The notes: a model not told the origin generated them from the letters alone. A DNA stretch of 64,000 bases from Candidatus Liptonbacteria bacterium (GCA_016194445.1 JACQBP010000035.1:4396-68395), one strand, 5' to 3'; positions 4,411-64,000 are shown, counted from the first letter of the stretch. Program-made: numbers and translations.

Positions 4411-4457
4411 CGTTTTATTGATTGATAATATGTTAAAAATTGATTAGAGTAAAGACA

Positions 4458-47719: not shown

Positions 47720-50011
47720 ATGTCCCCAAAGAGAAATCATTTCGCCGAAGTTAGAAAAAGAGATGGCCGCATCGTCGCCTTTGATCAAGATCGTATCACA
47801 AGCGCCATCAAAAAAGCCATGTTGGCTGCCGGAGAAGATCACCCCGAAGTCGACGCCGAGCGAGTTTCTGATCAAGTGGTCAATGCCCTCGCCCACAAAT
47901 TCACCGCCACTCACCTTCCCTCGATCGAACAGATTCAGGATATGGTGGAAACCCAACTCATGGCCACCGGTTTCACCCAAACCGCCAAATCTTACATTCT
48001 CTACCGCAACGAACGCGCCCGACTAAGAGAAGAAAAGCGCGAAGTCCCTGAACACGTCCGCGATTTAGCCGCGGAGAGTAAAAAATATTTCCGTAACCCC
48101 TTGGGCGAATTTATTTTCTACCGCACTTACTCCCGTTGGATCGAAGAAGAAAACCGCCGCGAAACTTGGATTGAGACGATTGATCGCTACCTGGATTTCA
48201 TGAAAGAAAATCTTGGCAACAAATTAACCGATGCCGAGTACAGCGAAATCCGTGAAGGTATTTTAAATCAAGAAGCCATGCCTTCGATGCGCCTCCTGCA
48301 ATTTGCCGGCAAAGCTGCTCGCTCGACCAACGTTGCCGCCTACAACTGCTCCTTCATCGCTCCCTCAAAACTTCAAGACTTCGCCGAAATTATGTACATC
48401 TCCATGTGCGGCACCGGTGTCGGCTTCTCGGTTGAAAATCAAAACGTTCAGCAACTTCCCCAAATCAAAAAACAAGGCGGTGAGAAATTGCCTACTCACG
48501 TGATCACCGACTCCAAAGAAGGCTGGGCTGACTCTTTGGCTTTCGGTATGCAAACCTGGTTCAATGGTAAAGACGTTGAGTTTGATTATTCCGAACTCCG
48601 GCCTGCCGGCGCGAGATTGAAAACTATGGGCGGCAAAAGCTCCGGTCCTGATCCGATCCGCTCACTCTTAAATTTCACGCGCGCTAAAATCCTAAAGAAG
48701 CAGGGTCGCCGTCTCTCCAACCTCGACGTCCACGACGTGATCTGTAAAATCGGCGAGATCGTGGTCGCTGGCGGCGTCAGGCGCTCCGCTTTAATTTCTC
48801 TCTCCGATCTCGACGACATCGAAATGCGCGATGCTAAAAAAGGCCAGTTTTATACGACCGAACCCCAACGCTCGCTCGCTAACAACTCTGCCGTCTACAA
48901 TCAAAAACCCTCCGCCGCTGAATTTATGGACGAGTGGATCGCGCTTATAAAAAGCGGCTCCGGGGAGCGCGGTATCTTCAACCGCGGCGGCCTGGCCAAA
49001 ACCCTGCCCGAACGCCGTCTCAAAGTCCTCAAGGGCTACGTGGGCGATCTGGGCACCAACCCTTGCGGTGAAATTATTTTGCAATCCAAACAATTCTGTA
49101 ACCTCTCCGAAGTGGTTTGCCGCGCCGAAGACACCGAGGAATCCTTGCTCCGTAAGGTTCGTCTAGCCACCATCTTAGGCACCTATCAAGCCACCCTCAC
49201 TAAGCTTCCCTATCTTTCCAAAGAATGGACCGAAAATTGTGAAACCGAAAGGCTCTTGGGGGTATCCATGACCGGCCAATGGGACTCGGTGGTCGCCCGC
49301 GAGCCCGAAGTTTTAAATAAGTTAAGAGAAGAAGCTATTAAAATTAACCAAGAATATTCCAAACGCTTCAAAATCAATGAATCCACCTGTATCACTTGTG
49401 TCAAACCCAGTGGCAATCTCTCGCAAACTGTCGACTGCGCCTCGGGCCTTCACCCTCGCCACTCGAAATACTATATCAGAAGAGTTCGTATCGCTCACAC
49501 CGACTCCCTTTTCAAAATGCTCCGCGACCAAAAAATTCCCTATCACCCCGAAGTGGGCCAATCGATGGAAACCGCCACCACCTACGTCGTTGATTTCCCA
49601 GTCAAATCTCCCGAAGGCGCCGTCTTCAAAAATAACGTCACCGCTCTCGAACTTCTCGAACATTGGAAAACGGTGAAAACTAAATTCACCGAACACAATC
49701 CTTCGGTCACCATCTCCGTGGGCGACGAAGAGTGGATTGCGGTGGCCGACTGGCTCTATGAAAATTGGGAAGTCATCGGTGGCCTCTCCTTCCTCCCTCG
49801 CTCCAACCATGTTTACCAGTTAGCTCCCTACGAAGAAATAAATGTTGATCAATACCAAGAAATGCTAGAAAAATTTGAAGGTTTAGATTTTTCCCAAATC
49901 ATGGCCTACGAAAAACGGGATGAAACCGACTTGAAAAAAGAACTGGCGTGCGTGGGCGGCGTTTGCGAGATCGACGAAGTCACCACCGAAGCCACCGCCG
50001 TAGCCGCTTAA
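47720..50011 (+). CDS. nrdJ: ribonucleotide reductase, class II-like, with an N-terminal ATP-cone
   Basis: ATP-cone VRKRDGRIVAFDQDRITSAIKKA; active-site loop NPCGEI; C-terminal CVGGVC. No adjacent nrdB. The ORF track starts at GTG 47705; ATG 47720 with GAGG 9 nt upstream is preferred. Confidence 0.8.
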   Translation: MSPKRNHFAEVRKRDGRIVAFDQDRITSAIKKAMLAAGEDHPEVDAERVSDQVVNALAHKFTATHLPSIEQIQDMVETQLMATGFTQTAKSYILYRNERARLREEKREVPEHVRDLAAESKKYFRNPLGEFIFYRTYSRWIEEENRRETWIETIDRYLDFMKENLGNKLTDAEYSEIREGILNQEAMPSMRLLQFAGKAARSTNVAAYNCSFIAPSKLQDFAEIMYISMCGTGVGFSVENQNVQQLPQIKKQGGEKLPTHVITDSKEGWADSLAFGMQTWFNGKDVEFDYSELRPAGARLKTMGGKSSGPDPIRSLLNFTRAKILKKQGRRLSNLDVHDVICKIGEIVVAGGVRRSALISLSDLDDIEMRDAKKGQFYTTEPQRSLANNSAVYNQKPSAAEFMDEWIALIKSGSGERGIFNRGGLAKTLPERRLKVLKGYVGDLGTNPCGEIILQSKQFCNLSEVVCRAEDTEESLLRKVRLATILGTYQATLTKLPYLSKEWTENCETERLLGVSMTGQWDSVVAREPEVLNKLREEAIKINQEYSKRFKINESTCITCVKPSGNLSQTVDCASGLHPRHSKYYIRRVRIAHTDSLFKMLRDQKIPYHPEVGQSMETATTYVVDFPVKSPEGAVFKNNVTALELLEHWKTVKTKFTEHNPSVTISVGDEEWIAVADWLYENWEVIGGLSFLPRSNHVYQLAPYEEINVDQYQEMLEKFEGLDFSQIMAYEKRDETDLKKELACVGGVCEIDEVTTEATAVAA

Positions 50012-50159
50012 AAGAAATCACTTTTTCTTGAAATCAAAAAGTTGCTTGGTAAAGCAAAAGATTTTTTGATTTCAACCCGATACTTTCTCATTTCTTTAAT
50101 AACGCCTTACAAAATCATCTCTTGAAAAACTAATTTAATCTGTTAAGCTAGATTGGCAT

Positions 50160-50429
50160 TCCCCGGTAGCTCAGTGGTAGAGCGGATCCCTGTCGGATAG
50201 GCAGCCTACAAGAGTAATCTTGTTTGAAAATTTCGGGATAACGGTGAACCCTTCGATACGCTTTGGCATATAAAGGTAACACCGTGGGAACCTCGCAATT
50301 TGCGGGGGCACCGTAGAGACTAGATACCGAAACATCCCAGTTGGGATGATGATATAGTCCGCGCCCTTTGGAAACTTTGGGATAAGTGTAAGGATAAGGT
50401 CGTAGGTTCGAATCCTACCCGGGGAGCCA
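50160..50429 (+). tRNA. tRNA gene interrupted by a group I intron; most likely tRNA-Asn(GUU)
   Basis: 5' exon (50160..50193) is TCCCCGGTAGCTCAGTGGTAGAGCGGATCCCTGT. 3' exon (50389..50426, plus CCA) is TAAGGATAAGGTCGTAGGTTCGAATCCTACCCGGGGAG+CCA. Joining them gives the anticodon loop CUGUUAA. U1:A72 and G73 match bacterial tRNA-Asn. Confidence 0.75.
50194..50388 (+). ncRNA. group I self-splicing intron (about 195 nt, small IC3-like) in the tRNA anticodon loop
   Basis: Conserved core elements are present: P-like AATTTGCGGG, R-like GTAGAGACTAGA and S-like GATATAGTCC. The 5' exon ends in U and the intron ends in G. A possible P1 pairs exon CUGU with intron GCAG. Confidence 0.7.
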
Positions 50430-52016
50430 GATGGGATGAGTGTCGCGAAAAGCGGCACTTTTCTCTTTATTGGTGGGCTTTTTCGCAGGTTCGAAAGTGC
50501 TTTTTTCGGTGTTTTTCTCGGAAAGCTCTTGTTGAACTCGATCATGTATGAGTTTAAAGGCTTTTTGGTAAGAAACCTCGACATTCTTGCCGTTTATCTT
50601 GGGGTTCGAAAATAGAAATGACAGCAGGGTTCGTTTTTGCTCAACCGTTCGCCGGGGTTTTAGATAAGTGTCGCGGGCCTCTTTTGCTATTTGAAGCACG
50701 GCCACACCCATCTCAAAATATTTGAGATTCGCGTTGCGATGGCGGTTTAAGCTGTCCAGCGTTTCTTCTTGCTCTTTTTTGTATTGCTGGAGTTTTTTGT
50801 CATAAAAATCGTGGCTGATTCGGCCGTCGATTTTATCGTCATAAAGTTTATCTATTCTCTGGGTGGCCGTCTGATATCTTCGTTCAAGTTCGGCCGATGA
50901 TTTTTCACGGAAGGCGATCTCGCCGGCATGGCTTTCTTTGAGTGCCTCTTGGACCCACGAGAGCATCCGTTCAATGCGTTTATCTTCGTGGCTTACTTCA
51001 ACCACCGATTTGGCCACTTGAGTATTGATATCTTCTTGCTTTACCCAATCATAATTCGGGCAGTTTTTGTAATGATTGCAGTGGCCGTACCAATGGCCTT
51101 TTTGTATTTCCCAAGTAATCGTTCCTCCGCATTCACTGCATCGGAATACGCTTTTAAACAGCGAATTGTGCTTTCGCATCCTCGGAGCTCCGTAACTGTG
51201 CAATCTATCCTGCACTTTTTGAAAAAGTTCTTTACTGATAAGCGGTTCGTGGTGACCCGGGGTGATCTGATTTTTCCATCGGTTCATGCCGTAGTAGAAC
51301 GGATCACCGAGAAGCTGATGGATTCGGGCATGGCTTACTTTGTGACTGGTACGCGAGCGCAGGCCTTTTTCATACATCGCATTGCAGAGTGTCTTGGTTG
51401 AGTATTGGCCGGATGCATATAATTCAAACATCTTTTTAATGAGTGGTGATTTTTCCTCGTCAATCACATGAACTTTATGTCCCTTCTCGCCGTCGGTTTT
51501 ATATCCGAGCGGAGGCTTTGTCGGCAACCATCCCTGCGCCAGTTTTTCTTTTTGCCCCTTTTTTACATTTTCAGAGAGCAGTCGGATATAGTATTCGGCT
51601 GTTGCCACTTTTACTCGCCACATAAACCACTCGTGCGATTTTGATTCTTTGTGCAGGGTGCATCCTTCTTTGACCAGATGAATTTTATGATTATCATCGG
51701 CCAGTATCCAATTATCAATAACCGGTACATCGGCGAAGTTTCTGGTGAGCCGGTCGGTGGTCTCTACGATGATGGTGTTGATTTTGTTTTTTACCACATG
51801 CGCCATCATCTCGCCGAAGATTTTTCGCTGGATTTTGCCGGCGGCCGACTCTTGGATGGCAAAAACTTTCGTGAGCTCGAAGTTATTGCGTTCGGCATAG
51901 TCGCGAAGGAATTTTTCTTGGGCCGGTAGTGAATAGCCGGTATCCTCTTGATCTTTTGAGGACACGCGGGCGTATCCCACGGTCTTTGGCATTTCGTTAT
52001 TGTTTATCATTGTCAT
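50415..52016 (-). CDS. large serine recombinase (integrase)
   Basis: N-terminal resolvase catalytic domain with VGYARVSSKDQ; recombinase domain; zinc ribbon CSECGG...HCNHY. The 3' end overlaps the tRNA 3' end by 15 nt. Confidence 0.85.
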   Translation of the reverse strand: MTMINNNEMPKTVGYARVSSKDQEDTGYSLPAQEKFLRDYAERNNFELTKVFAIQESAAGKIQRKIFGEMMAHVVKNKINTIIVETTDRLTRNFADVPVIDNWILADDNHKIHLVKEGCTLHKESKSHEWFMWRVKVATAEYYIRLLSENVKKGQKEKLAQGWLPTKPPLGYKTDGEKGHKVHVIDEEKSPLIKKMFELYASGQYSTKTLCNAMYEKGLRSRTSHKVSHARIHQLLGDPFYYGMNRWKNQITPGHHEPLISKELFQKVQDRLHSYGAPRMRKHNSLFKSVFRCSECGGTITWEIQKGHWYGHCNHYKNCPNYDWVKQEDINTQVAKSVVEVSHEDKRIERMLSWVQEALKESHAGEIAFREKSSAELERRYQTATQRIDKLYDDKIDGRISHDFYDKKLQQYKKEQEETLDSLNRHRNANLKYFEMGVAVLQIAKEARDTYLKPRRTVEQKRTLLSFLFSNPKINGKNVEVSYQKAFKLIHDRVQQELSEKNTEKSTFEPAKKPTNKEKSAAFRDTHPIWLPG

Positions 52017-52109
52017 TTTTGGTTAATTTTTTGGTTCGAAATCGACCTTTGGTCTCAAGACAACCCCTATGCCAATTCTCGATATCCATCAAGCTGATTT
52101 GCCCACAGC

Positions 52110-52646
52110 TCAAACACCGGTGTCTATCCAGTCAAAAAGTCGGTTTTCCGCATCTTCTGGATATTCTTTTCGAGCCAGCTTGAGCCGTACTTCGTAAGGG
52201 ACGAGATACCACCTTTCCATTGATGTCATTTTTGAGAGCGCTTCTTTGCTTAAATTCATTTCTTCTTTGGGCCTGCCTTCGACGCGATCCAGAAGCTCTT
52301 TTATGGCGCCGAGCTTCACATTGTCTTGCTGGCTTCCCATTAAAGCTACGAGCATTTCGTTGGCAAGCCGGAAGTTCTTCTCGCGAATTTGAACGCCGGC
52401 CTTGAGAAGCATCTGCATCGTTTCCCCGTGGATTGTATCCATTTCTTTCTCGTAAAGCTTGTATGTCTCGCAGAGCGTTCCCGTGTCTTTAAACCAATCT
52501 TTTGCTGTTTGCTCGGAAAACTTGCCTTTTCTACTTTTTTCAAACTGGGAATTCAAAGTTTCGGCAATGTCTTGGTAGGAATTGCCTTTATATTTCAGCT
52601 CTAACGCTTTCTTGTGGTATTCGGCTAAATGTTTGAGTTTCGGCAT
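52110..52646 (-). CDS. hypothetical HTH protein (element-encoded)
   Basis: GNSYQDIAETLN helix-turn-helix-like segment. Confidence 0.35.
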   Translation of the reverse strand: MPKLKHLAEYHKKALELKYKGNSYQDIAETLNSQFEKSRKGKFSEQTAKDWFKDTGTLCETYKLYEKEMDTIHGETMQMLLKAGVQIREKNFRLANEMLVALMGSQQDNVKLGAIKELLDRVEGRPKEEMNLSKEALSKMTSMERWYLVPYEVRLKLARKEYPEDAENRLFDWIDTGV

Positions 52647-52657
52647 GAAAAGTTGTG

Positions 52658-52855
52658 TTAAGTAGAGTGTTTGGCTGATTCATGGCGAATAGGTTGGACC
52701 GGCTTCCCCAGCACATACTCAATAATAATTATTGCCGCTTGAAGCCGTATTGATTCGTCTTTGCTTTCCAAAAGCGAAACCAGCACTTTTGTCGCTTTCA
52801 CTACATTTTTTCGTAGTATTTCTATCGCGATTTCTTCTGGCTTTTTATTTTTCAT
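52658..52855 (-). CDS. small hypothetical protein
   Basis: 65 aa, overlaps the next gene by 4 nt. Confidence 0.25.
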   Translation of the reverse strand: MKNKKPEEIAIEILRKNVVKATKVLVSLLESKDESIRLQAAIIIIEYVLGKPVQPIRHESAKHST

Positions 52856-53346
52856 GGTTTTGGCGTCATTGATTTTATTAATGTCTCGCGACCTCTTGCG
52901 AGCGCATCCAATGATTCCTGGTCTTTTTCTTGGGCGTATTGACGGCGGTATTTTAGATCATCGAGCGCGCGTTTCTTTTGGCAAAATTCTTCGTATGCCT
53001 TAAGGCCTGGGCCTACCGCCCAGCTCCAGCCCGGGTGTTCTGGCTTAACCCAGCGACGAGATATCGCTTTATTTCGAAGCAGATATTGGACGATACCGGC
53101 ATCGGTTAGGCCGGTAACATCGTTGCGAACTCGACGCGTGTCTTGGCTTTCGGGGAATTCTCGCTTGCCGATCTTAAAGGCGTTTATAACCGGCACCGTC
53201 TCTCCGTAGAAGCTCATTGGTCTTTCCAGCGGTTCTTTTTTCAGTTGCTCAAGCTCGGCCTCAAATTCTCGAATAGCTTTTCGATCTTCTTCGATATCCA
53301 AGTCGTACCCGACTTTTATTGGTTTTTGTTCTTCATTTAATTTCAT
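52852..53346 (-). CDS. hypothetical protein
   Basis: Charged helical protein; no recognisable motif. Confidence 0.35.
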   Translation of the reverse strand: MKLNEEQKPIKVGYDLDIEEDRKAIREFEAELEQLKKEPLERPMSFYGETVPVINAFKIGKREFPESQDTRRVRNDVTGLTDAGIVQYLLRNKAISRRWVKPEHPGWSWAVGPGLKAYEEFCQKKRALDDLKYRRQYAQEKDQESLDALARGRETLIKSMTPKP

Positions 53347-53349
53347 GGC

Positions 53350-54117
53350 TTAGACAATAAATTTAAGAAGTGTCTCAAGGCTATATTTCTTGAGCCATCC
53401 TTCTTTGACCGCTTCTTGCATCCGCTTATAGCCTTGCTTCAACCGCTCGTCCTCAAACGGCATAAGGTTTTTAGCGGCTCGCAGATTTCTTCGGATAAAA
53501 GTTTCCCATTGCCTTTTAGTGGTGAAATCAGGCTCCTCGGTATCCGCCCAAATTCCGATAATCTGAATATGGCGTTGCGGACTTTGATTGCACCACTCAA
53601 CGAATTCTTTTAAATCCATAGGCATATCCGCATTCACCGAAGGTGTTGCAATATCTTCTTTATTAATTTTCTTTATTGATTCTTCTTTGTTGCCATCCAT
53701 TGGCTTTTCTAAAATCACCGGATGACTTTTCATAACGCACCCAGTGCCTTTTCTATGAGAAAAATCATCTGGTGACTTTTCTTTTTTGGCATAGTATTTG
53801 GCGTTCAGTTGCCATAAATCGACGATCTTGTACTCAATGGTCGGCTTAGTTTTGCCGGCAACGCCGACTTTTTCTATCCAACCTCTTTGCACTAAAGTTT
53901 TCTGATACTTTCTGACGGTACCCGGAGCGATATCGAGTTTCTTTGCGATATTAATCGGCGACTCCCAGCAGGTGCCGGTCTCGCCGGCAACGCGCTTCAT
54001 GTAAAGATAAATTGCCTGCTCGTAGACGGTTGAATGGTTCACGATATAGTTCGGAATGATCGTGAAATATTTGCGGTCACCGCTTTTATCTATGATTTTG
54101 AAGGGATCACTTTTCAT
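53350..54117 (-). CDS. winged-helix DNA-binding protein (replication or regulatory function, element-encoded)
   Basis: wHTH-like segment PGTVRKYQKTLVQRGWIEK. Confidence 0.35.
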   Translation of the reverse strand: MKSDPFKIIDKSGDRKYFTIIPNYIVNHSTVYEQAIYLYMKRVAGETGTCWESPINIAKKLDIAPGTVRKYQKTLVQRGWIEKVGVAGKTKPTIEYKIVDLWQLNAKYYAKKEKSPDDFSHRKGTGCVMKSHPVILEKPMDGNKEESIKKINKEDIATPSVNADMPMDLKEFVEWCNQSPQRHIQIIGIWADTEEPDFTTKRQWETFIRRNLRAAKNLMPFEDERLKQGYKRMQEAVKEGWLKKYSLETLLKFIV

Positions 54118-54288
54118 GGCTTTGTTGTTCGGCGATTAAATCCTCGCAGTAGCACTGCATCAGCGTGTCGTAAAAGCCCACGAGACAAAATGCGATGTCG
54201 TGCAAATCCTGATCATTGACCTCTTCGCCAAAATCTTCTTTGAGAATGACGCGGAGCTTCTCCAGCGTTTCTGGTTTTAAGTTCACGG

Positions 54289-54549
54289 CTATTCGTGGGC
54301 ATAAATCCTGACTTTGGCGAGTTTAAGCTGGTTGAAAAATGCTTGCGGCTCGACCTTGAGTTCGCGCTTCCAATACTTGGCGACAAGCTCATCCAGCTCG
54401 TCGCTTTTCTTGAACGCGAATAGGACTTTATGCGGGTTTGTCCGATCGCAGACCTCGAGCGAATCGGGAATAAATAATAAAAGCACCGCCACCAACGCTA
54501 AATCGGCGGATTTATAAACTTCGGTTTGTTCAGTTGTTTTCATCGTCAT
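54289..54549 (-). CDS. small hypothetical protein
   Basis: 86-aa ORF. Confidence 0.3.
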   Translation of the reverse strand: MTMKTTEQTEVYKSADLALVAVLLLFIPDSLEVCDRTNPHKVLFAFKKSDELDELVAKYWKRELKVEPQAFFNQLKLAKVRIYAHE

Positions 54550-54651
54550 TATTCGCTAAACCGATGTTCCGTTTCGGGGCCTCACCCAAAACAAAACACA
54601 CTCCCATGTTAAGGGAGTGCATTCATTCAATTTTCAGTTATGAATTGATTT

Positions 54652-55353
54652 TTAGGGCTTAAAATACCATCCTTCCTGCTTTTGATTGAAAATTACATCT
54701 TTTTTGAAATGAAGTTTTAATAGGTTGTGGAGCTCGCTTACATACTTTGCGATTGTAATTCTGGGCGTGGATTTTCTTCTGTCCGCATTGATAATCGCGT
54801 CTTGTATGTCATCTCTTGTGAGCATCCGATTCGGGTGATCCATAAAAAGTCGGCATAAATCTTTTATCTGACTTCGCATTTCAATCATTTCGCCTTGATA
54901 TCGGATCGTTCCATCGGAATAGCCGGCAAGGCCTTTTATTTCAATCTCTGGCTTCAAATCTTGAACATACAGCAAGTCCTTTTTGTGCCGGCGCGTAGGA
55001 GCTGTACTGAAGATTTCCTCATCAGATTTCTTGGGTGGCGCAACCAGATCCATCAATTTTTGCCGTTCCTTATACAAAAGCATCTTTATCGGTCTAATCA
55101 AATAAAAACAATCTTGATCCTCTTCAAAATTGCCAATAATTTTCTTCTTTTTGAGGTCTTTAAGCCACCGTCTCTGTTCGTCCCAAGAGTGGAGCGGAAA
55201 AGGGTTGAGCCAGACCTTTTTTCGTTTAGAGTAAAATTCGGGATCATCCTCGCCGGCCACTTCAACTCTTTTGATAACCTCGTTGATAAAATCAATTTTT
55301 CTTTGGGCCTCCCGCCTGATTTTTACTACATCATCATTAATAGTCATTGTCAT
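54652..55353 (-). CDS. hypothetical protein
   Basis: 233 aa; the C-terminal part may be winged-helix-like. Confidence 0.35.
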   Translation of the reverse strand: MTMTINDDVVKIRREAQRKIDFINEVIKRVEVAGEDDPEFYSKRKKVWLNPFPLHSWDEQRRWLKDLKKKKIIGNFEEDQDCFYLIRPIKMLLYKERQKLMDLVAPPKKSDEEIFSTAPTRRHKKDLLYVQDLKPEIEIKGLAGYSDGTIRYQGEMIEMRSQIKDLCRLFMDHPNRMLTRDDIQDAIINADRRKSTPRITIAKYVSELHNLLKLHFKKDVIFNQKQEGWYFKP

Positions 55354-55440
55354 AGTGTTAAATCCATTGTGTCAGATTTTGCCACTTTTGAAAATAAATA
55401 CGAGCGGACGGTAACAGTTTCAATGAGCTAAAGCGACGGA

Positions 55441-56070
55441 TTGTCGGAAAAAGAAATAAGTGATATGGTAAAAAATATTTCCATAGCTTCTATGCCCAAA
55501 CCACAACTTACCTACAATCCCAATTATTATGACGGAACAAACCTCATGCAGCTGAGACCGCGCGAGGTTGCTTTCAAAACATATAAAATGCGCGACGGTA
55601 CTCTGATAGGCTTATTTCAGGGAAGTCGTGGAGTGCGACCAGACATTGATTTCGTTATAAAAATTCTTATTCCCGGATCCGATAAAAAATTAAGACCACC
55701 AACTCACACCTTTTGGGTTGTGGATCTATTACTTAAAATCCCGCAATACAAGAACGAGGTGAAAGAAATTGTGCAATATTATATAGATTATTACGAACGG
55801 ACGGTTCCTTTTGCTTCTGTTCAGGAAAGAAATAATTACCAGCTTGAAACCGTTGAGGAAATTACAACTCGTTATGCGCAACTGGAGCAACCATATACAC
55901 TTTCACTCGATTATGTCGCGACGGTCATTGAACTTTTTTGTAAGAACGAGAAAATCAACCCCGGCGCATATATGTTCCGAAATCTCTTGCTCGTGTTGAG
56001 AGATTATATTGACGGCAATAAGCACTATACAGAAGTGCTTCAGGCCGCAATGCCTGGCTACAGAAATTAG
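55441..56070 (+). CDS. hypothetical protein
   Basis: 209 aa; no recognisable motif. Confidence 0.35.
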   Translation: MSEKEISDMVKNISIASMPKPQLTYNPNYYDGTNLMQLRPREVAFKTYKMRDGTLIGLFQGSRGVRPDIDFVIKILIPGSDKKLRPPTHTFWVVDLLLKIPQYKNEVKEIVQYYIDYYERTVPFASVQERNNYQLETVEEITTRYAQLEQPYTLSLDYVATVIELFCKNEKINPGAYMFRNLLLVLRDYIDGNKHYTEVLQAAMPGYRN

Positions 56071-56711
56071 CTTGCTGTCTCAAAAATCTTTTTTACTAGC
56101 CCTGTGCGAGCATAGAATGCCCGAGTAATAGGGCGACGCTTTCCAGTTCGCGGATTAATACCACCAATGCCTTTTGTGCGAGCCTGTATCCACTTGCCGT
56201 CTTTCCCGGTTAAGGCATCAAAACCCTTCTTAATCAGTTTGTCGCGGATAAAATCGTAGTCGGCCTTGATTTCTTTTATCAATTCACCGTCCTCGGCGAA
56301 ATCCAAGCTTGCCACGCTCAGCAACTCCGCTTTCTTGGAATTCATGCCATTCCATTTTACGGCACAAAAAATAATAGTTTTAAATTTTGCCCAAACATGA
56401 CTTTCAAAAAACGAATGATCCTTTAATTCTTCGGGGTGGACCATTGTTATCGCCATCGTTTCTTTTGGTACGAGTTTATTGTTCACATAATGAAAGGCGA
56501 CGGATTTGAGTTCGTAAGTAAGCCCATTCGGTGCTTTTGAGACATTTGTTTGTAGCCCCGCCAACCGTTCTAAGACAAGACCCTTCCAGCCTTTATTTTG
56601 CTTTCCATTCTTAAACGAATTGATACCGAATTGCAAAGCAAGATCGGCAAGGTCTCTACCAATATATTTCTTCAGATTTTTTATCGCAGTTGCCCGAGTT
56701 ACAATTTTCAT
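56067..56711 (-). CDS. MutH/Sau3AI-family GATC endonuclease (restriction subunit)
   Basis: Similar to MutH. NKGWKGLVLERLAG aligns with MutH DKGWIGVLLEIWLG, TYELKSVAF with GVELKTIPV, and the C-terminal ITRAFYARTGLVKKIF with RGFYLKKNF. Translationally coupled (ATGA) to the upstream methyltransferase. Confidence 0.75.
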   Translation of the reverse strand: MKIVTRATAIKNLKKYIGRDLADLALQFGINSFKNGKQNKGWKGLVLERLAGLQTNVSKAPNGLTYELKSVAFHYVNNKLVPKETMAITMVHPEELKDHSFFESHVWAKFKTIIFCAVKWNGMNSKKAELLSVASLDFAEDGELIKEIKADYDFIRDKLIKKGFDALTGKDGKWIQARTKGIGGINPRTGKRRPITRAFYARTGLVKKIFETAS

Positions 56712-58177
56712 GCCTCTTTGATAAGTTTATTGTTTAAATTGCGATCCAATTCCTCGAATCGTTTAATAGATAGCTCTAAAAATTTTGATTCGGTATCAAT
56801 ACCTATAAATTTTCTTCCATGAAGATAGGCCGCAATGCCGGTAGTGGAACTTCCTGTAAATGGGTCAATGACCAGATCACCTTTATTCGTGCTTGCGAGT
56901 ACTATTCTTTTTAACAAATCTTCTGGTTTTTGTGTAGGGTGTTTTCCAAACTTTTTTTCTATCGGCTTGGGAGTGCCCATTGACCAAACCGAGCGCATTT
57001 GGAGCCCTGGCTTTTTTAAATTATCCTCCGTCCAATGGCCGTTTTTCATCAGATCATAATTGAATGTGTGTTTCGCCTTTCTTTCTTTTCTTGCCCAAAT
57101 TAAAGTTTCGTGACTTGCGGTAAAGTATCGGCAACTAAGATTCGGTGACGCGTTTGGTTTAAACCATGCGATGTCGTTTAAGATATGATATCCGAGTGCC
57201 TGTAGAGCATGGCCGCACTGGTAAATTGAGTGATAGGTACCGCTAACCCAGAGAGTACCGTGCGGCTTCAAAACTCTTCGACACGCCTCCATCCATTTGT
57301 AATGAAAATCATAGTCATCTTTAAACCCCTTACTCTTGTCCCAATCTCCCTTATTCACGCTAACCATTCGTCCGGCGTGAACCGTAAAGCCGCCGTTGGA
57401 AAGGTTGTAGGGTGGATCGGCAAAAATCATATCCACAGAATTTTCTGGAAGTCGTGCTATCACATCTAAGCAATTTGCTTGAAAGAGTTTGAATTTTGGT
57501 TTTTCGTAATAGGGCTTTAGTGCTACTGTACCTTGGTCTGTTTTTTCGATAACAATTTCGGGGATATTTACACTTGCTTCTTGAATCACATCCAGCACTA
57601 TCCCTTGGATCGAGACATCTCGTCCGTTTCTAAATATAAGCGGCTCCATGCTTTTGTTTGCTGGTTGTAAGCGAATATGTCCGCGTTCTCTATAAAATTT
57701 CTTTAGCGTTGCTTCGTGGTTATCGATGAGGGCGACTACCTTTTGTCCGTTATCGGCAACAGCTTGTTGCTTTACCAATACAACATCGCCATTATTGATT
57801 CCTTCATCGATCATACTATCGCCGAGCACGCGCAGGGCATAGAATTCACCGCTTCGTGGTAGCTTGTTTTGAGGGATCGCAATAGTTTCCTTTTCTTGTA
57901 TTGCCTCTATCGGCTGGCCCGCGGCTATGGTGCCCAAAAGAGGAATTTTTACCAGTTTAGCGGTTTTTTCTATTAAACTAATGCCACGCGCTGAATTATC
58001 GTTTTTTGCAACGAATCCTTTATCTGCCAAAACTCCGATATGCTGGTGGATCGTTGAAAGAGAGGAGAGTCGGAAGTGTTTTTTGATTTCTTCCAAAGTC
58101 GGTGAAAAGCCCTTCTTGTTGATATAAGACTCGGTGTAGTCGTAGATTTGTTTTTGTCGCTTGGTTAGTGTGGCCAT
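56708..58177 (-). CDS. LexA-like repressor (wHTH plus S24 peptidase) fused to a DpnA-like GATC N6-adenine DNA methyltransferase
   Basis: The N-terminal 200 aa align with E. coli LexA, including the AAG cleavage site and GDSM/K catalytic residues (LTKRQKQIYDY, GTIAAGQP, LRVLGDSMIDEGINNGDVVLV, TLKKF). The C-terminal 285 aa align with M.DpnIIB/DpnA: DMIFADPPYNLSNGG, VSVNKGDWDK, NLSCRYFTASHETLIWARK, GKHPTQKPEDLLKRIVLAST and VIDPFTGSSTTG. Confidence 0.8.
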   Translation of the reverse strand: MATLTKRQKQIYDYTESYINKKGFSPTLEEIKKHFRLSSLSTIHQHIGVLADKGFVAKNDNSARGISLIEKTAKLVKIPLLGTIAAGQPIEAIQEKETIAIPQNKLPRSGEFYALRVLGDSMIDEGINNGDVVLVKQQAVADNGQKVVALIDNHEATLKKFYRERGHIRLQPANKSMEPLIFRNGRDVSIQGIVLDVIQEASVNIPEIVIEKTDQGTVALKPYYEKPKFKLFQANCLDVIARLPENSVDMIFADPPYNLSNGGFTVHAGRMVSVNKGDWDKSKGFKDDYDFHYKWMEACRRVLKPHGTLWVSGTYHSIYQCGHALQALGYHILNDIAWFKPNASPNLSCRYFTASHETLIWARKERKAKHTFNYDLMKNGHWTEDNLKKPGLQMRSVWSMGTPKPIEKKFGKHPTQKPEDLLKRIVLASTNKGDLVIDPFTGSSTTGIAAYLHGRKFIGIDTESKFLELSIKRFEELDRNLNNKLIKEA

Positions 58178-58276
58178 AAACGATTGACTCGGTGTATTTA
58201 TTTTCTTACACTATCAGTATACCGAAGATTTGCCGAAGATGTAATAGCCCACTTATCCACATGCAGAGAAATAGCA

Positions 58277-58294
58277 AACAAGTCGACAAACTTG
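58277..58294. promoter_or_regulatory. ACAAGT-N6-ACTTGT palindrome (with central GTCGAC) in the divergent promoter region; candidate operator
   Basis: Only strong palindrome in the 170-bp region between the LexA-methyltransferase start and the 1205-aa gene start. Confidence 0.35.
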
Positions 58295-58347
58295 TCTATA
58301 AACTCTACGGCCTCACTTCGGAGGAGTTAAGATTGTAGAACAAAACC

Positions 58348-61300
58348 ATGCCGGAAAACGATAAAGAAATACCAGTTCCATATGAGAAGCCACTAATTTT
58401 AAGCGAGAAGCAAAAATGGCTTTGCTCACATTTGGATGCACTCAACGGCATTGAAAATTTTTGTCCAAACGCAATCCCATCCGATCTTTTTGTAGGCGCA
58501 CTGTCTTTGGTTAAATCAAAAAACAGAAAGACAAACCCTGATTGGATGGCACAGGCAGCTCATTCTTTGCGAGAAATATTATATGGAGTGGGGCAGGTCA
58601 GACGACCCAAAAATAAACTTATCCTGGCTTGGCAAGTTTTCTTGGGAAAAGGTGAAAATTCTCTGACTCGAAGAGCGAGGATTGAAAATTTATTGAAAGT
58701 ATACCAAGAGGAACAGCGGGCTTCAGAATTAGCTCATGTTTTAAATGATTTACATTTTATATTTACCAATATCGCTCATCATTTGCAGGATAGTCAAAAA
58801 CATAAGTATGTAAAAAAGAAACTAATAAAAATAGGGATTTCAAATCCAGAACCTTCCTTGATAGTAACTGAAGCTGTATTTGAACAATTGATGGATACTC
58901 TGGAAAATGCTTGGGCACAATCTATTCCTCGACAACTTACCATTCATGAACAAATCGATTCTCTGTTAAGCCGCGATCCAAAATTAGTCAGCAAAGGAGT
59001 TTTGAATGTTCTTTTATCTTTTAACCCCGACGCGCGGTACTACTTTTATACCAAAGCCGATGAGCGTTGGCTTGGTTGGCTTTGGGGAAATGGTTTTCTG
59101 GATGTTATCAAACAAAAAGCAGAAGATCCTACGCGCTATGGCTATAGAACACCAGAAGTTAATTACCTCGTAAAAGTTTCTGAAAAAGAGCCGGCAAAGG
59201 TGGTTGATATTATGCTGGCCGTACCGATTTCTACGGAGAACTTTAATCCAGAAGTGGTGGACAGGTTCTTACGCATTTGTAGTGGCTTGCCAGCACCAGA
59301 ACTCAAACGGATGGTAAAGAAAATTCGTGATGATGGATTGGTGCGACTTATGGGTGCATTCAACGATTGGGGTTTTGAGTATGAAAAAATGCTTAAAACT
59401 TTAACTGATGTCAATGACTTTGATAGCGTTCTTGTTCTTGCAGAGGCAGTACTTTCCATTCGTACAAAAAAAGAAGCCGAACAAACTTCGCGCGGCTTTT
59501 TGTCCGACAATCCTTTCTACTTCAAAGAACTAAGCTATACAAAAGTATTCGAATACTTACTCAAGGTGGATGAGAAAAACATTGAAAATGCACTCACCTT
59601 GGTAACCAGCACGATGAAAGAGGTTGTACTCTTTGGAGAAAAAGAAGGCAAGGATGAAGTGTTTAAGGTTTATGATAGCTACTTTTTATTAGATGTAGAT
59701 TTTTTTGAGCTTGAACTTACCGAAAAAGACAGGCTTTCGCACAGAGACGATGTTAAAAATCTCGCAGCTGTTATTAAGCATTATGCAGAGCAAACCATCG
59801 GGAAGAAATGTGACGATGTCGAATCGGCAGTTAAGCTGTATAACCAGTATTTTAATCATCTCCCGGATAGCCGCTCTATGTGGCGTCTCCGATTATTTGT
59901 ATTGAGTTTGTGCCCCGGCGCATTTAAAGAAGAGCTTAAAAAGGCATTCTTCCGATTGTTTGAGATTGAGCGTTACTATAACGAGATTATTTCTGGCACA
60001 GAATATTTGAAGGCGCTCCGTATTGGATTTCCTGTTTTATCTGATGATGATAAGCGTAAATATGTAAAACAGGTTATAGATTACTTTGTAAAAAAAGACC
60101 AAGAAAAAGAGAACGAAAAAGAAAATTGGCATATAGGGTATGGCTCGAGAATTATTTCAGTAATAGCCGATCAGCTTACTGAAGAAGAAAAACAAACAGC
60201 CAAAGACGCTGGATTTACGCTCGATCCTAACTATAAGCCAGAGCCATCCATAAAGATGGGTGGTTTTGCTGGTAGCATAAGACCAAGGGGACCGATAATC
60301 CAAGAAGAATTTGGAAATCTCTCGATAACTGATATTGCAGGGAAATTAAGAGTTGAATGGACGCCAGAAGAGTTGAGAAAAGAAAATACAAACGAGGATT
60401 TTCATAATCCCTTAAATGCAGAGGGTGTCGGCGAAATGTTGCGAATTGATATAACTAAGCGTCTACAAGATTATATAAATAACGCAAACATCTTTTTTGA
60501 ACGAGATAAATTAGACCAGCACTATACTTATTCTTTTCTGCGAGGCATACAAGAGGTTCTTCGAGGCAATAAAACCGAGGTCAGTGGTATAAATTGGGAT
60601 AATTTGATAGCTCTTTGCGTCACGATAAAGAAATCTGGCGAGACAAAACCCTTCGATAGCGGAAATCGCGAGCGCGATACTTTTGATGCGTGGCTTTCTG
60701 GCTGGACAGGCGTTCATTCTGCTATGACAGATGTTGTCCAAGAACTACTGACCGAAGAAAGGGGTGCTAAAATCGACTTTCCTAAATATCGCGATGACCT
60801 GTTTGGGGTCATAGGATATCTCCTTTCTTATCCCGATCCAGTTCCCGCCGACGAAGAGCCGAAAACAGCAAAAATGACTACAACGCCTCCTGGCGCAAAA
60901 GAACAAATGGTAAGCGATCCTTATTCGATGGCAATCAACACGGTACGGGGTAGAGCATTTCAAGCTTTTGCGTTGTTTATGTATCAAGACGGGAAGAAGT
61001 TCTCTAAAAACGAAAAAATAAAGATTTCCCTCGATGTTAAGGGACTGTACGAGGCTGTTCTCAAAAAAGAAAATACCCGGGCCCTTATGTTTATGTTCGG
61101 GCATTATCTGCCGTCGTTCTACTTTCGAGATAAAGAGTGGATGCAGAGCCTTTTCTCGCAGATTTTTTCTGCAGAGCCAACAAAGAAAAATCTCTATACG
61201 GCCGCATGGGAGGGCTATGTTTCAGCAAATCTTTATGATGAGATATTCTTCAACCCAGATACTCAGAAGTTATACGAACGGGGTCTTGCTCTGACAGATT

Positions 61301-61965
61301 CGGACTATCCACAACAAAAGCATTTCAAAGAACCGGACGAAGGCGTTGCTGTTCATGTTGCGCTTGCCTTCATGCACTTCTCGAAATTTGATTTTGACCA
61401 CGATCTATTCAAAAAATTCTGGAGTATGCCAAACCCGGAATATCACAAAGAATTTATCTCCTTTATCGGTCGCCACTCTATTTCACGAAAATCGGCTGCG
61501 GAATGGATAAAATACAATAAAGTCGATATTGAGAAACTTAAAAAGTTCTGGGATTGGGCGCTTAAAAATTGCAACATAGATGCGCTTACCGGCTTTGGTT
61601 TCTGGATTAATATGGAGCGTAGCCCATTGGATACAAAATGGCTCGCAAGTCACGCACGCCAAACGCTTGAGAAAACAAAGGGATATGTTGAGTGGGAATA
61701 TGGATTAATGCGCTCACTTGCGGCATTTGCAAAAGAGGCGCCGGAAGACACGCTTGCCATTTTGCGCGCTCATCTCCTTGAAGAGGTTGCAAAACATGAG
61801 CCAGTGAGAACATGGCTTCACATGGATGCCGAAGTTTATGACACCTTCAAAGAACTCTATAAAAATGAAGCGACAAAAGAAGGGGTGCGCACGCTTGTTA
61901 ACGACCTCTTGCCTTATCGTAATGGGATGTTTTGGGGGTTGAAATCTATCTTGGAAGAAAAATGA
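58348..61965 (+). CDS. large (1205 aa) uncharacterised alpha-helical protein, element-encoded
   Basis: Long uninterrupted ORF with no P-loop or nuclease motif found. Its stop overlaps the start of the PrimPol-helicase (ATGA). Confidence 0.5.
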   Translation: MPENDKEIPVPYEKPLILSEKQKWLCSHLDALNGIENFCPNAIPSDLFVGALSLVKSKNRKTNPDWMAQAAHSLREILYGVGQVRRPKNKLILAWQVFLGKGENSLTRRARIENLLKVYQEEQRASELAHVLNDLHFIFTNIAHHLQDSQKHKYVKKKLIKIGISNPEPSLIVTEAVFEQLMDTLENAWAQSIPRQLTIHEQIDSLLSRDPKLVSKGVLNVLLSFNPDARYYFYTKADERWLGWLWGNGFLDVIKQKAEDPTRYGYRTPEVNYLVKVSEKEPAKVVDIMLAVPISTENFNPEVVDRFLRICSGLPAPELKRMVKKIRDDGLVRLMGAFNDWGFEYEKMLKTLTDVNDFDSVLVLAEAVLSIRTKKEAEQTSRGFLSDNPFYFKELSYTKVFEYLLKVDEKNIENALTLVTSTMKEVVLFGEKEGKDEVFKVYDSYFLLDVDFFELELTEKDRLSHRDDVKNLAAVIKHYAEQTIGKKCDDVESAVKLYNQYFNHLPDSRSMWRLRLFVLSLCPGAFKEELKKAFFRLFEIERYYNEIISGTEYLKALRIGFPVLSDDDKRKYVKQVIDYFVKKDQEKENEKENWHIGYGSRIISVIADQLTEEEKQTAKDAGFTLDPNYKPEPSIKMGGFAGSIRPRGPIIQEEFGNLSITDIAGKLRVEWTPEELRKENTNEDFHNPLNAEGVGEMLRIDITKRLQDYINNANIFFERDKLDQHYTYSFLRGIQEVLRGNKTEVSGINWDNLIALCVTIKKSGETKPFDSGNRERDTFDAWLSGWTGVHSAMTDVVQELLTEERGAKIDFPKYRDDLFGVIGYLLSYPDPVPADEEPKTAKMTTTPPGAKEQMVSDPYSMAINTVRGRAFQAFALFMYQDGKKFSKNEKIKISLDVKGLYEAVLKKENTRALMFMFGHYLPSFYFRDKEWMQSLFSQIFSAEPTKKNLYTAAWEGYVSANLYDEIFFNPDTQKLYERGLALTDSDYPQQKHFKEPDEGVAVHVALAFMHFSKFDFDHDLFKKFWSMPNPEYHKEFISFIGRHSISRKSAAEWIKYNKVDIEKLKKFWDWALKNCNIDALTGFGFWINMERSPLDTKWLASHARQTLEKTKGYVEWEYGLMRSLAAFAKEAPEDTLAILRAHLLEEVAKHEPVRTWLHMDAEVYDTFKELYKNEATKEGVRTLVNDLLPYRNGMFWGLKSILEEK

Positions 61966-64000
61966 TCAATATAACCGAGCAACAACTTGAGTTATTTATG
62001 TCCTTATTTCGCGGCCGCGAAGATGTTTATGCGCGTCGCTGGGAAAAAGGTGATAAGTCAGGCTATAGCCCGGCGTACGATTTTAATTGGGACGAGTTCA
62101 TGTCGCATAAACGCCGAGGCGGATCAATGAAGGATTTCGATAATAAAACATTGCTTCCTCTTGCTAGAGAAGTGGTTAAAAAGCATCTTTTGGGACAGCT
62201 TGTTGTCGGAATTTATCCAATACTTACCGAAAATACTTCGTATTTTATTACGGCTGACTTCGATGGGGAAACTTGGAATAATGATGCAAAAGCGTTTCTT
62301 CGTATTTGCAAGGAAGAGTGTATCAATGCCTATCTGGAGCGCTCTCGATCAGGTAATGGCGGACATGTTTGGATATTCTTTTCTGAACCGTACCCATGCT
62401 ATAAAAGCCGGCAAATTGTTCTTGAATTAATACGCCGCGCATTTCATATCTCCGAATTTGAGAAAGAAGTTAGTTTTGACCGCTTATTTCCAAACCAAGA
62501 TACTCTTACGAAAAATGGGTTCGGTAATTTGATAGCTTTACCATTACAGGGAAGATCATTCGAACACGGAAATGCGTTATTTGTTGATGCTGCCACGAAC
62601 AAACCCTTCTCGGATCAATGGGCCTTTTTACAAAATGCGAAGCGCCACACACCTCAGGAATTAGAAACAATGCATAGCAAGCTTTTTAATACCGCAGATA
62701 AACCAATTCAATCTTTACCAAAAGACAATAGCTTCCAAATTACGGTCAGCAATCAAATAACATTGCCGCGCGCACAACTTACGCCAACGATTATTCATTT
62801 CCTTAAAAACGAACTTAATTTTTTAAATACCGAATATCTAACCAAGCGACGACTCGGTAAATCAACTTATAAGATACAAAAATATTTCAAATTAATTGAT
62901 GAGGCGGGAGATACCATTTCGTTACCGTGTGGTTTCTTAACCCAACTGAGTGCGTTTTTGGATCAAAATCATATTGCTTATGCTTTAACGGAAAACCATG
63001 CTCTTCTGGATGAAGCGACTTTTAATAACGACATTAAGCTAACACCCGCGCAGACAAAAGTTGTAGAACAAGCCACTGGCTATAATCAAGGAGTTATCGT
63101 GGCACCTTCTGGAAGTGGTAAAACGATAATGGGACTGGAACTAATCGCCCGGAGAAAACAGCCGGCCTTAATTCTTGTACACCGCAAACAAATTCTTGAT
63201 CAGTGGGTTGACCGCATACAAGCATTTTTGGGTATCGCAAAAACACATATCGGCCAGTATTCTGGTGTCAAGAAGAAAATCGGTAAGCAAATCAGCGTTG
63301 GCCTACTTCAAAGCTTTGCAAGAAAAGGTGATTTATCCGAGCTACAAAATTCTTTCGGCACAATAATTGTTGACGAATGCCATCACATCCCCGCATCAAC
63401 TTTTCGAGAGGTTATTGCCCAGTTGAATCCACAATATCTCTATGGGCTTACGGCTACGCCCAAACGCAAACATAACGACGAAAAGCTTATCTATGTTTAT
63501 ATTGGCGACATTGTTGCTCAAATGGCCGTATCTGATGTGCCTATTCACGAAACAAAAGTAAGTGTGTACACGCCAGAAGTTTTAATACGAACCACCAATT
63601 TAGAAATACCATTCAAATTTACCACCGACTACTTTCAATTACTGGCAAAAATCATTTCTTGCGATACTGGGCGTAATCGCTTAGTTGTCGATAACATACT
63701 TAGCGAGGTTGAGAAAAATAGAAAAATCCTTGTGTTGAGCGAACGAAAAGAACACCTCGAGATTTTAAACATGTATCTTAAAAGTAAATGCGAAACTATT
63801 GTTATTTCTGGAGATGATTCTGCTCGAGCGCGGAAATCAAAACTTGCACAAATTCAAAGCGGTCATTATCAGGTTATTCTTTCAACGGGGCAATTTTTTG
63901 GTGAAGGTATCGATATTCGAGGCACAACCTGTCTTGTACTGGCTTTTCCTTTCTCGTTCGAAGGCAAGCTCATCCAGTATATGGGGCGCCTACGCGATAT
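61962..64000 (+). CDS. PrimPol (archaeo-eukaryotic primase-polymerase domain) fused to an SF2 DEAH-box helicase; partial, runs off the window
   Basis: Manual translation: PrimPol motifs GIYP...YFITADFDGE and SRSGNGGHVWIFF; helicase motif I APSGSGKT, motif II IIVDECHH, motif III LYGLTATP. Confidence 0.65.
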   Translation, partial: MINITEQQLELFMSLFRGREDVYARRWEKGDKSGYSPAYDFNWDEFMSHKRRGGSMKDFDNKTLLPLAREVVKKHLLGQLVVGIYPILTENTSYFITADFDGETWNNDAKAFLRICKEECINAYLERSRSGNGGHVWIFFSEPYPCYKSRQIVLELIRRAFHISEFEKEVSFDRLFPNQDTLTKNGFGNLIALPLQGRSFEHGNALFVDAATNKPFSDQWAFLQNAKRHTPQELETMHSKLFNTADKPIQSLPKDNSFQITVSNQITLPRAQLTPTIIHFLKNELNFLNTEYLTKRRLGKSTYKIQKYFKLIDEAGDTISLPCGFLTQLSAFLDQNHIAYALTENHALLDEATFNNDIKLTPAQTKVVEQATGYNQGVIVAPSGSGKTIMGLELIARRKQPALILVHRKQILDQWVDRIQAFLGIAKTHIGQYSGVKKKIGKQISVGLLQSFARKGDLSELQNSFGTIIVDECHHIPASTFREVIAQLNPQYLYGLTATPKRKHNDEKLIYVYIGDIVAQMAVSDVPIHETKVSVYTPEVLIRTTNLEIPFKFTTDYFQLLAKIISCDTGRNRLVVDNILSEVEKNRKILVLSERKEHLEILNMYLKSKCETIVISGDDSARARKSKLAQIQSGHYQVILSTGQFFGEGIDIRGTTCLVLAFPFSFEGKLIQYMGRLRD

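Follow-up and report, generated by a model that had tools for sequence, protein, structure and literature searches.

The 64,000-nucleotide window analysed here, a stretch of Candidatus Liptonbacteria bacterium DNA (GCA_016194445.1, JACQBP010000035.1:4396-68395), carries a gene that joins a complete, apparently self-cleaving LexA to a DNA methyltransferase within one polypeptide, followed on the same strand by a gene for a MutH-like protein. The principal features of the fusion gene are as follows.

56708-58177, minus strand: LexA-methyltransferase fusion gene, a single unbroken open reading frame (ORF) of 489 residues, stop codon included
57983-58177, minus strand: LexA winged-helix DNA-binding domain, residues 1-65 (PF01726, 4e-15)
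57596-57943, minus strand: S24 self-cleaving peptidase and dimerisation domain, residues 79-194 (PF00717, 1e-29)
57917-57922, minus strand: codons of the predicted cleavage site Ala86-Gly87, from alignment
57815-57817 and 57701-57703, minus strand: codons of Ser121 and Lys159, the predicted catalytic dyad
57527-57577, minus strand: flexible linker between LexA and methyltransferase, residues 201-217 (AlphaFold2 predicted local distance difference test score below 50)
56738-57517, minus strand: beta-class N6-adenine DNA methyltransferase domain, residues 221-480 (PF01555, 5e-58)
57407-57418, minus strand: methyltransferase motif IV, DPPY, residues 254-257, from the sequence
56837-56866, minus strand: methyltransferase motif I, DPFTGSSTTG, residues 438-447, from the sequence

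A Pfam search of the 489-residue chain recovers LexA_DNA_bind (residues 1-65), Peptidase_S24 (79-194) and N6_N4_Mtase (248-471) in one protein with the E values listed above, as a sequence-only reading of the window had expected. That reading had also placed a complete LexA at the methyltransferase N-terminus, and the evidence bears it out. Residues 1-200 score 182.5 bits against the NCBIfam lexA equivalog TIGR00498, above its cut-off of 110.95, and the protein departs from a stand-alone LexA of about 200 residues through its length of 489 residues and the methyltransferase that begins after residue 220. A86, G87, S121, K159, DPPY and motif I are invariant in an alignment of 60 fusion proteins, and the first four residues are also invariant among 26 sequences of the LexA clade. 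In the AlphaFold2 model the winged helix-turn-helix comprises helices 6-22, 28-35 and 40-52 together with a beta wing; it is followed by the S24 barrel and, after a disordered linker at residues 201-217, by the methyltransferase fold. An identical 489-residue product is encoded on contigs of two separate sequencing runs, SRR12113410 and SRR12113409, and the database search proposed for the architecture returned at least 120 protein clusters, 62-93% identical, with the same three domains in about 480-500 residues. Thus, the fusion is no sequencing or assembly artefact, because the same protein arises in two independent assemblies and its architecture recurs in at least 120 clusters. The fusion proteins have been public since 2015, annotated only as 'modification methylase'. 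We found no published description of a LexA-methyltransferase fusion, including in a 2026 survey of methyltransferases from the Candidate Phyla Radiation (CPR); a 2017 study of the Patescibacteria SOS network (Sanchez-Osuna et al.), which lay outside that search, may overlap.

What controls the expression of this gene? The region upstream of its start codon holds a compact promoter.

58216-58221, minus strand: -10 element TATACT, a promoter-like match
58222-58237, minus strand: putative LexA operator, a TTCGG-N6-TTCGG direct repeat with an 11-bp period, in the promoter spacer
58240-58245, minus strand: -35-like hexamer TTACAT/ATTACA, a promoter-like match
58253-58261, minus strand: TGTGGATAA, a perfect DnaA-box consensus, conserved beside the putative operator

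The direct repeat at 58222-58237 is the sole exact match in the window. A module of the same order, TGTGGATAA(C/G)T, two direct repeats 11 bp apart and a TATAAT-like -10, precedes all of the 17 closely related fused genes first examined; among related promoters the repeat reads TTCGG-N6-TTCGG, TTCTA or CTCGG, with the TATAAT-like hexamer directly after it. Four stand-alone CPR lexA genes, whose products are 60-75% identical to the LexA moiety, carry the same module, so the fused gene still has the promoter that is native to lexA in CPR bacteria. At loci where the methyltransferase is unfused, the repeats are found in 0 of 68 and the TGTGGATAA box in 2 of 68.

The recognition helix (S41-T-I-H-Q-H46; S-T-x-H-X-H in the wider set, X being residue 45) changes together with the repeat. 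Across 100 loci, helix residue 45 is F, Y or H with TCTA-type repeats (55 loci) and Q or E with TCGG (38 loci), with one exception; three helix/repeat classes coexist (Q/TCGG, F/TCTA and E/TCGG). A change in one repeat is always matched in the other, whereas the TGTGGATAA box does not vary with them. In 747 kb of loci, 96 exact repeats lie at lexA promoters and 10 elsewhere, the latter mostly inside genes, and an extra match at locus L133 lies inside a C-protein gene. From these observations we infer that the direct repeats are the LexA operator, an assignment that goes no further than inference because promoter and recognition helix are inherited as one block. No convincing further operator copies, as a wider regulon would have, were found in the 64-kb window or the 747 kb of loci.

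The DnaA-type box is present in 75 of the 100 lexA promoters irrespective of the LexA helix type. In the window, TGTGGATAA occurs at five sites (7376, 15223, 45844, 47646 and 58253) versus 0.27 expected, and DnaA may co-regulate the lexA-methyltransferase gene and nrd. One of these copies lies about 50 nt 5' of the class II ribonucleotide reductase gene (47705). Separately, a one-mismatch operator-like repeat, TACGGCCTCACTTCGG, is present at 58306-58321 on the plus strand, 27 nt 5' of the ATG of the divergent gene described below, and may represent a second LexA site or mere coincidence.

The sequence-only reading had treated the fusion as a rarity, a view that does not survive comparison with other genomes: in CPR bacteria this LexA clade occurs predominantly as fusions, with partners drawn from many methyltransferase families. 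Members of the fusion family bear the names of Woesebacteria, the Parcubacteria group and Yanofsky-, Uhr-, Curtiss- and Saccharibacteria, all CPR/Patescibacteria; in the window itself, the product of a gene near the fusion is 100% identical to a protein of Candidatus Liptonbacteria. When metagenomes were scanned with only the LexA portion, 80 loci emerged (62-91% identity). Of about 68 complete ORFs among them, all but one measure 430-615 residues and so extend LexA at its C-terminus. The methyltransferase of the window is present in only about 8 of these ORFs, the rest carrying N6_N4 methyltransferases 20-40% identical to it. The fused beta-class methyltransferase domains form 16 clusters, each with its own downstream gene cluster, mostly convergent, in which the partner genes include nucleases of TaqI, BglII, BsaWI and Endonuclease VII/HNH type. 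In an exhaustive profile search, 38 of the 56 best LexA-clade representatives are 390-890 residues long with LexA at the N-terminus; their fusion partners include gamma methyltransferases of Eco57I/TaqI_C type, a D12 (Dam-type) enzyme and a C5 enzyme (P0395, P0396, P0401, P0412, P0430 and P0441; up to 890 residues).

LexA and its promoter thus behave as a discrete, reusable module, as one locus (L092) illustrates: its DNA is 80-90% identical to the window from -100 to +600 of the gene and at background level outside, and its methyltransferase is a different one. Unfused LexA occurs as the first operon gene with DpnI (three loci) or an NmeDI_C nuclease, under the same promoter module.

L088 5001-6412, L090 5001-6414, L099 4001-5409 and L089 5001-6384: stand-alone lexA followed within 6-14 nt by a DpnI or NmeDI_C-type nuclease gene

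DpnI is a nuclease that requires methylated GATC, and these LexA operons with methylation-dependent nucleases thus mirror the DpnI/DpnII alternatives. Divergent LexA-like repressors are encoded by separate genes just 5' of the window-type methyltransferase at L055, L059 and L065 and are fused to it at L018. None of the loci examined has a second lexA copy nearby. As for a phage origin, the single close LexA match in IMG/VR (L176) is itself a fusion, so viruses are not the usual carriers of the module. Neighbouring genes for a methyltransferase and a nuclease recur as pairs: the MutH-like gene does so at part of the loci, and a one-to-one pairing links the other LexA-methyltransferase clusters to TaqI-, BglII-, BsaWI- and HNH-like genes. 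Judged by these gene arrangements, one LexA-promoter module joined to many methyltransferases, each with its own nuclease, is a general CPR design. LexA in CPR bacteria appears to be mainly a methyltransferase front end or the first gene of nuclease operons, which suggests that these tiny bacteria wire restriction and modification to a DNA-damage signal.

At L133, a TaqI-like endonuclease gene (5513-6468, minus strand) is convergent with a LexA-methyltransferase fusion and has its own small XRE-type C protein 5', placing two different regulators in one restriction-modification system.

The methyltransferase domain is beta class by its motif order, in which DPPY precedes DPFTGSSTTG within an N6_N4_Mtase fold. 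The best solved structure for the domain (METHYLTRANSFERASE) is CcrM (6pbd, 206 bits), and CcrM is also its best NCBIfam match. However, a CcrM-type (GANTC) assignment was set aside because DpnA-type cassette methylases and a 260-residue PADLOC family score higher. The PADLOC type II family MTase_II PDLC03371 matches with 325 bits over positions 3-258 of 260, versus 249-263 bits for CcrM-like families. The closest annotated relative, at 51% identity and 272 bits, is the DpnA-like second methylase of the Lactococcus plasmid pSRQ700, the gene of which sits between those of a Dam-type methylase and an endonuclease; CcrM-type genes reach 44.5% identity and 207 bits. The same cassette of Dam, DpnA-like methylase and endonuclease is present on an S. 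aureus plasmid, its methylase being 49% identical to the window domain. As pSRQ700 encodes LlaDCHI, a GATC system related to DpnII, and the best annotated relatives are second methylases of DpnII-like cassettes, homology upholds the proposal that the enzyme is of DpnA type, forming N6-methyladenine probably at GATC. Site frequencies in the window (GATC 0.75 and GANTC about 0.71 of expectation) do not separate the two specificities. The three-gene DpnM/DpnA/DpnII-nuclease cassette is not reproduced here: the neighbours of the fusion gene are the MutH-like gene and a gene without a family match, and no D12 methylase or DpnII nuclease is among them. Unfused copies of the window methyltransferase share 73-92% identity although they come from no fewer than 597 species-level genomes of widely separated CPR classes (L019-L087), a conservation far above the expectation for vertical descent that suggests frequent transfer or very strong constraint.

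The coupled partner gene has the following coordinates.

56067-56711, minus strand: MutH-like single-domain nuclease homologue, 214 residues (Pfam MutH, PF02976, 7e-9)
56526-56528, 56511-56513 and 56505-56507, minus strand: codons of MutH-like residues N62, E67 and K69, from alignment

The TGA stop of the methyltransferase gene overlaps the start of the MutH-like gene (ATGA), with AAGAGG just 5', an arrangement that marks the two genes as translationally coupled. The MutH-like protein matches the NCBIfam MutH profile over nearly its whole length (5e-13; protein residues 10-211, profile positions 13-218 of 223) and the Sau3AI profile of 475 positions in the N-terminal half only (3e-13), and its PDB matches are MutH (1azo/2aoq). 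It is therefore a single-domain, MutH-sized protein and not a two-domain Sau3AI, as had been supposed, although its score of 49 bits is far below the equivalog cut-offs of 243-300. Among 33 unique homologues, 70-92% identical, the segment KAPNGL.YE.KSV and residues R178, K180 and Y200 are invariant. E48, E67-x-K69, K111, Q-x-R178-x-K180 and R-x-F-Y200 are kept and align with MutH E56, E77-x-K79, the QIRPK loop and Tyr212; the invariant Q176-A-R178-T-K180 and R197-A-F-Y200 match the 'QIRPK' and 'PRGFY' residues, Tyr212 included, with which MutH reads GATC and its methylation state. In contrast to this, the catalytic D-(X)6-E-X-K triad (MutH D70, E77 and K79) is incomplete, since the Asp position is occupied by A60 or N62 in 33 of 33 homologues, the MutH D70/Sau3AI 'PD' segment is replaced by an invariant K-A-P-N-G-L and the hairpin is two residues shorter. 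Whether the partner nicks or cuts both strands had been posed as a question; the MutH-like identity and size on which it was based are confirmed, but the activity itself is in doubt, the canonical Asp of MutH and Sau3AI being absent. The protein is evidently under strong constraint and may be an unusual nuclease, a partner-dependent nickase or a GATC reader. Where the window-type methyltransferase is fused to LexA, about 13 of 24 loci have the MutH-like gene 3' of it; where it is unfused, about 26 of 68 do, so that fused or not the share is only about 40-50%.

Convergent with the MutH-like gene lies a conserved gene that may encode a second nuclease or an accessory factor.

55492-56070, plus strand: orf209, a conserved gene of 192 residues (true start M18), overlapping the MutH-like gene by 4 nt

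orf209 has 238 homologues at E<=0.001, of which the 120 listed are 75-100% identical, and it accompanies the fused window-type methyltransferase even at loci without the MutH-like gene. Its product matches no Pfam, NCBIfam or PADLOC family, and its confident AlphaFold2 model has no structural match.

The system is located in DNA that differs from the surrounding chromosome.

50350-64000, no strand assigned: integrated mobile element, 13.6 kb or more and continuing past the window on the right, delimited by ACGT/CTAG avoidance
50415-52016, minus strand: large serine recombinase at the left end of the element, with Resolvase, Recombinase and Zn_ribbon_recom domains
58348-61965, plus strand: divergent gene (ORF) of 1205 residues sharing its intergenic region with the fusion gene

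ACGT occurs at 83 sites up to position 49635 and at none in 49636-64000, where about 24 are expected, and is present at the expected frequency in the chromosome left of the element. CTAG after 50320 is found at two sites (56096 and 62164) versus about 14 expected. Restriction-site avoidance and the serine recombinase together mark the DNA carrying the system as foreign and mobile, in agreement with the proposal that the gene pair sits inside an integrated element. The 1205-residue protein has no Pfam, NCBIfam or PADLOC match; its gene is followed by an AEP-TOTE/DEAD-box helicase gene that runs off the window, both belonging to the element, which also encodes small helix-turn-helix proteins. 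Other family members occur in varied contexts, some of them among core genes (L007 and L174). Outside the element, the window is typical CPR chromosome with core genes, among them those for ParAB, RelA, TopA, DprA, the type IV pilus, FtsAZ, ATP synthase, Obg and a class II ribonucleotide reductase. One further observation concerns this chromosomal part, in which a ParA/Soj-type ATPase gene (4440-7052, plus strand) is interrupted by an intein with a LAGLIDADG homing endonuclease domain.

How might a LexA serve a methyltransferase? We propose, with moderate confidence, that the locus is a type II restriction-modification-like module on an integrated element whose controller is a self-repressing, RecA-cleavable LexA-methyltransferase. 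The fusion protein would dimerise via its S24 domain and, through its winged helices, occupy both TTCGG repeats of the promoter spacer upstream of its gene, shutting the operon that comprises the methyltransferase and the coupled MutH-like gene. Through such self-binding the methyltransferase level would be self-limiting, as in SsoII-type methyltransferases. RecA-ssDNA filaments, arising from breaks caused by self-restriction or damage, from repair synthesis that leaves unmethylated sites, from phage DNA or from imported ssDNA, would then trigger self-cleavage at Ala86-Gly87. With the DNA-binding domain lost, the promoter would open and more methyltransferase, still joined to the S24 domain, would be made. 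Cleavage of this kind would be consistent with the invariant catalytic residues and with the putative lexA operator that the gene has kept. The N-terminal fragment released by the predicted cleavage would end in -IAA; cleaved E. coli LexA ends in -VAA and is targeted by ClpXP. The benefit could be a feedback from chromosome breaks and repair synthesis, with their unmethylated sites, to protective methylation, or alternatively an induction on entry of phage DNA or transforming ssDNA, comparable to the competence-induced dpnA-dpnB of pneumococcus (PMC3573125). Observed directly are the domain architecture with its conservation and recurrence, the promoter element with its covariation, and the partner genes; that the protein binds the operator, is cleaved in response to RecA and recognises GATC, that the MutH-like protein is an active nuclease and that the cell gains from it all, through a damage-induced rise in protective methylation, in defence or in both, is inferred.

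Several observations weigh against it. The catalytic Asp canonical in MutH and Sau3AI is missing from the MutH-like protein and the MutH-like gene is absent from more than half of the loci carrying this methyltransferase, so that the pair may not be a classical restriction system. Because the nuclease is co-transcribed with the methyltransferase in the window, derepression would raise both and muddy the net benefit. The helix-repeat covariation could partly reflect linkage rather than recognition, and the DnaA-type box conserved within this promoter hints at a further or a different layer of control. Finally, no recA gene is present in the 64-kb window.

A more far-reaching form of the proposal is that the SOS repressor and DNA modification have merged into one molecule in CPR/Patescibacteria, the fusion being the only LexA of the cell. 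Cleavage triggered by RecA filaments on single-stranded DNA, whether damaged, freshly repaired or imported, would then both switch the operon on and free an operator-tethered DpnA-like enzyme to methylate the new DNA. In type II systems this would correspond to restriction alleviation and to the protection that competence-induced DpnA gives pneumococcus. One LexA module would serve at least four classes of methyltransferase as well as nucleases that depend on methylation, DpnI among them. Taken as a whole, we consider this form tentative and on balance doubtful.

A rival reading, compatible with the self-repressing controller proposed above, is that the fusion is the organism's only and general SOS repressor, governing recA, uvr and other genes, with the methyltransferase as a passenger and any control of restriction-modification as a by-product. 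The LexA moiety passes the equivalog cut-off, it shares its promoter with the stand-alone CPR LexA proteins to which it is 60-75% identical, small CPR genomes are expected to hold one lexA, and in L007 and L174 the gene lies among core genes. On the other side, no further operator copies were found in promoters across the 747 kb of flanking DNA or the 64-kb window. Moreover, the LexA module travels with many restriction genes, here on a mobile element, and the 62-91% identity of LexA over very distant CPR classes suggests horizontal spread with cassettes. We regard this reading as unlikely.

Could the methyltransferase and the MutH-like protein instead form a Dam/MutH-style strand-discrimination module, for mismatch repair or nicking, that is placed under SOS control by LexA? 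The partner is indeed MutH-sized and single-domain and keeps equivalents of MutH E56, E77, K79, QxRxK and Tyr212, GATC is mildly under-represented (0.75 of expectation), and the methyltransferase often occurs without the nuclease, like an orphan Dam. However, the methyltransferase is of the DpnA type from restriction cassettes and not of Dam type, the sister LexA fusions pair with bona fide restriction endonuclease families, the system is carried on a mobile element, and the MutH-like protein is about equally similar to Sau3AI. In addition, no mutS or mutL is found among the larger genes scanned in the 64-kb window. A strand-discrimination role is therefore improbable.

We assign an equally low probability to the idea that the LexA part is a mere dimerisation or DNA-tethering module without a RecA response, in which case the protein would simply repress its own synthesis, as SsoII-type methyltransferases do, with no input from DNA damage. 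CcrM, the enzyme of the best PDB match (6pbd), and other beta-class methyltransferases act as dimers, and non-cleaving LexA proteins are known from some cyanobacteria (PMC4759255). Against this idea, no aligned member, fused or stand-alone, departs from the Ala-Gly pair, the Ser nucleophile or the Lys base, a constancy that is hard to explain without selection for cleavage. An artefact, in which a frameshift or misassembly joins two genes, has virtually no standing, since it is refuted by the identical ORF in two independent assemblies and by hundreds of homologous full-length ORFs from many studies.

If the self-repressing, RecA-cleavable controller is correct, its significance lies in a problem common to restriction systems, which must keep methylation ahead of cutting while damage and repair create unmethylated sites. 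A methyltransferase bearing the damage sensor LexA would provide type II systems with a direct feedback from chromosome breaks to protective methylation; we know of no such mechanism described for them. The finding would also redefine LexA for a very large share of the bacteria, and it is relevant to the way in which CPR episymbionts, which depend on DNA uptake, reconcile defence with the acquisition of DNA. The system offers testable parts, namely a promoter of about 50 bp with a direct-repeat operator, three helix/operator specificity classes and many natural domain swaps.

Regulators of restriction-modification genes are known in several forms, and the closest parallel to the fusion is found in the SsoII-type methyltransferases (M.SsoII, M.Ecl18kI, M.EcoRII and M.MspI). 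These enzymes use an N-terminal DNA-binding domain to occupy a site in their own promoter and thereby limit their own synthesis; they are C5 methyltransferases with a short, plain helix-turn-helix and no peptidase. The window fusion likewise has an N-terminal DNA-binding domain and a site in its own promoter that is predicted from conservation. It differs in being an N6_N4 methyltransferase with a full LexA including S24, in its 11-bp direct-repeat operator and in a LexA module that is common to many methyltransferase families. The S24 self-cleaving domain predicts a built-in off-switch triggered by RecA-ssDNA, unlike the SsoII-type enzymes.

As a LexA, the protein resembles the TIGR00498 family in its full-length match above the cut-off, its winged helix-turn-helix and S24 domains and its catalytic residues. 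It differs in carrying a 290-residue enzyme at its C-terminus, in travelling with restriction cassettes and in having no detected regulon beyond its own operon. The direct repeat in its promoter has a counterpart in the LexA operator of Alphaproteobacteria, GTTC-N7-GTTC, which is a direct repeat with the same 11-bp period (PMC8565304).

The DpnII (dpnM-dpnA-dpnB) and LlaDCHI systems share with the window a methyltransferase domain, at 51% identity to the DpnA-like second methylase of LlaDCHI. The choice between DpnI and DpnII also has a parallel, in that CPR bacteria have, behind the LexA module, either DpnI or a methylase of GATC type together with a nuclease. Unlike DpnII and LlaDCHI, the window system lacks a Dam-type DpnM and a DpnII-family nuclease and has a MutH-like protein instead. 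In pneumococcus, the couplet of ssDNA methylase and restrictase belongs to the competence regulon (PMC3573125) and is under ComX control, whereas control by a fused LexA is predicted here. The MutH-like protein resembles MutH and the N-terminal domain of Sau3AI in its full-length hidden Markov model match and its conserved NKGW.G..LE, E-x-K, QxRxK and RxFY motifs, and differs from them in an invariant A-P-N in place of the first Asp, a shorter hairpin and the lack of the second Sau3AI domain.

In C-protein systems, as proposed here, a dedicated transcription factor times and limits the expression of the restriction-modification genes, and several regulator/operator specificity classes coexist. 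C proteins, however, are small, separate proteins of the XRE family that usually control the R gene, whereas LexA is fused to M in the window system. Thus, the window system resembles both SsoII-type and C-protein control and yet belongs to neither, being distinguished by another regulator fold, an added peptidase and a direct-repeat operator.

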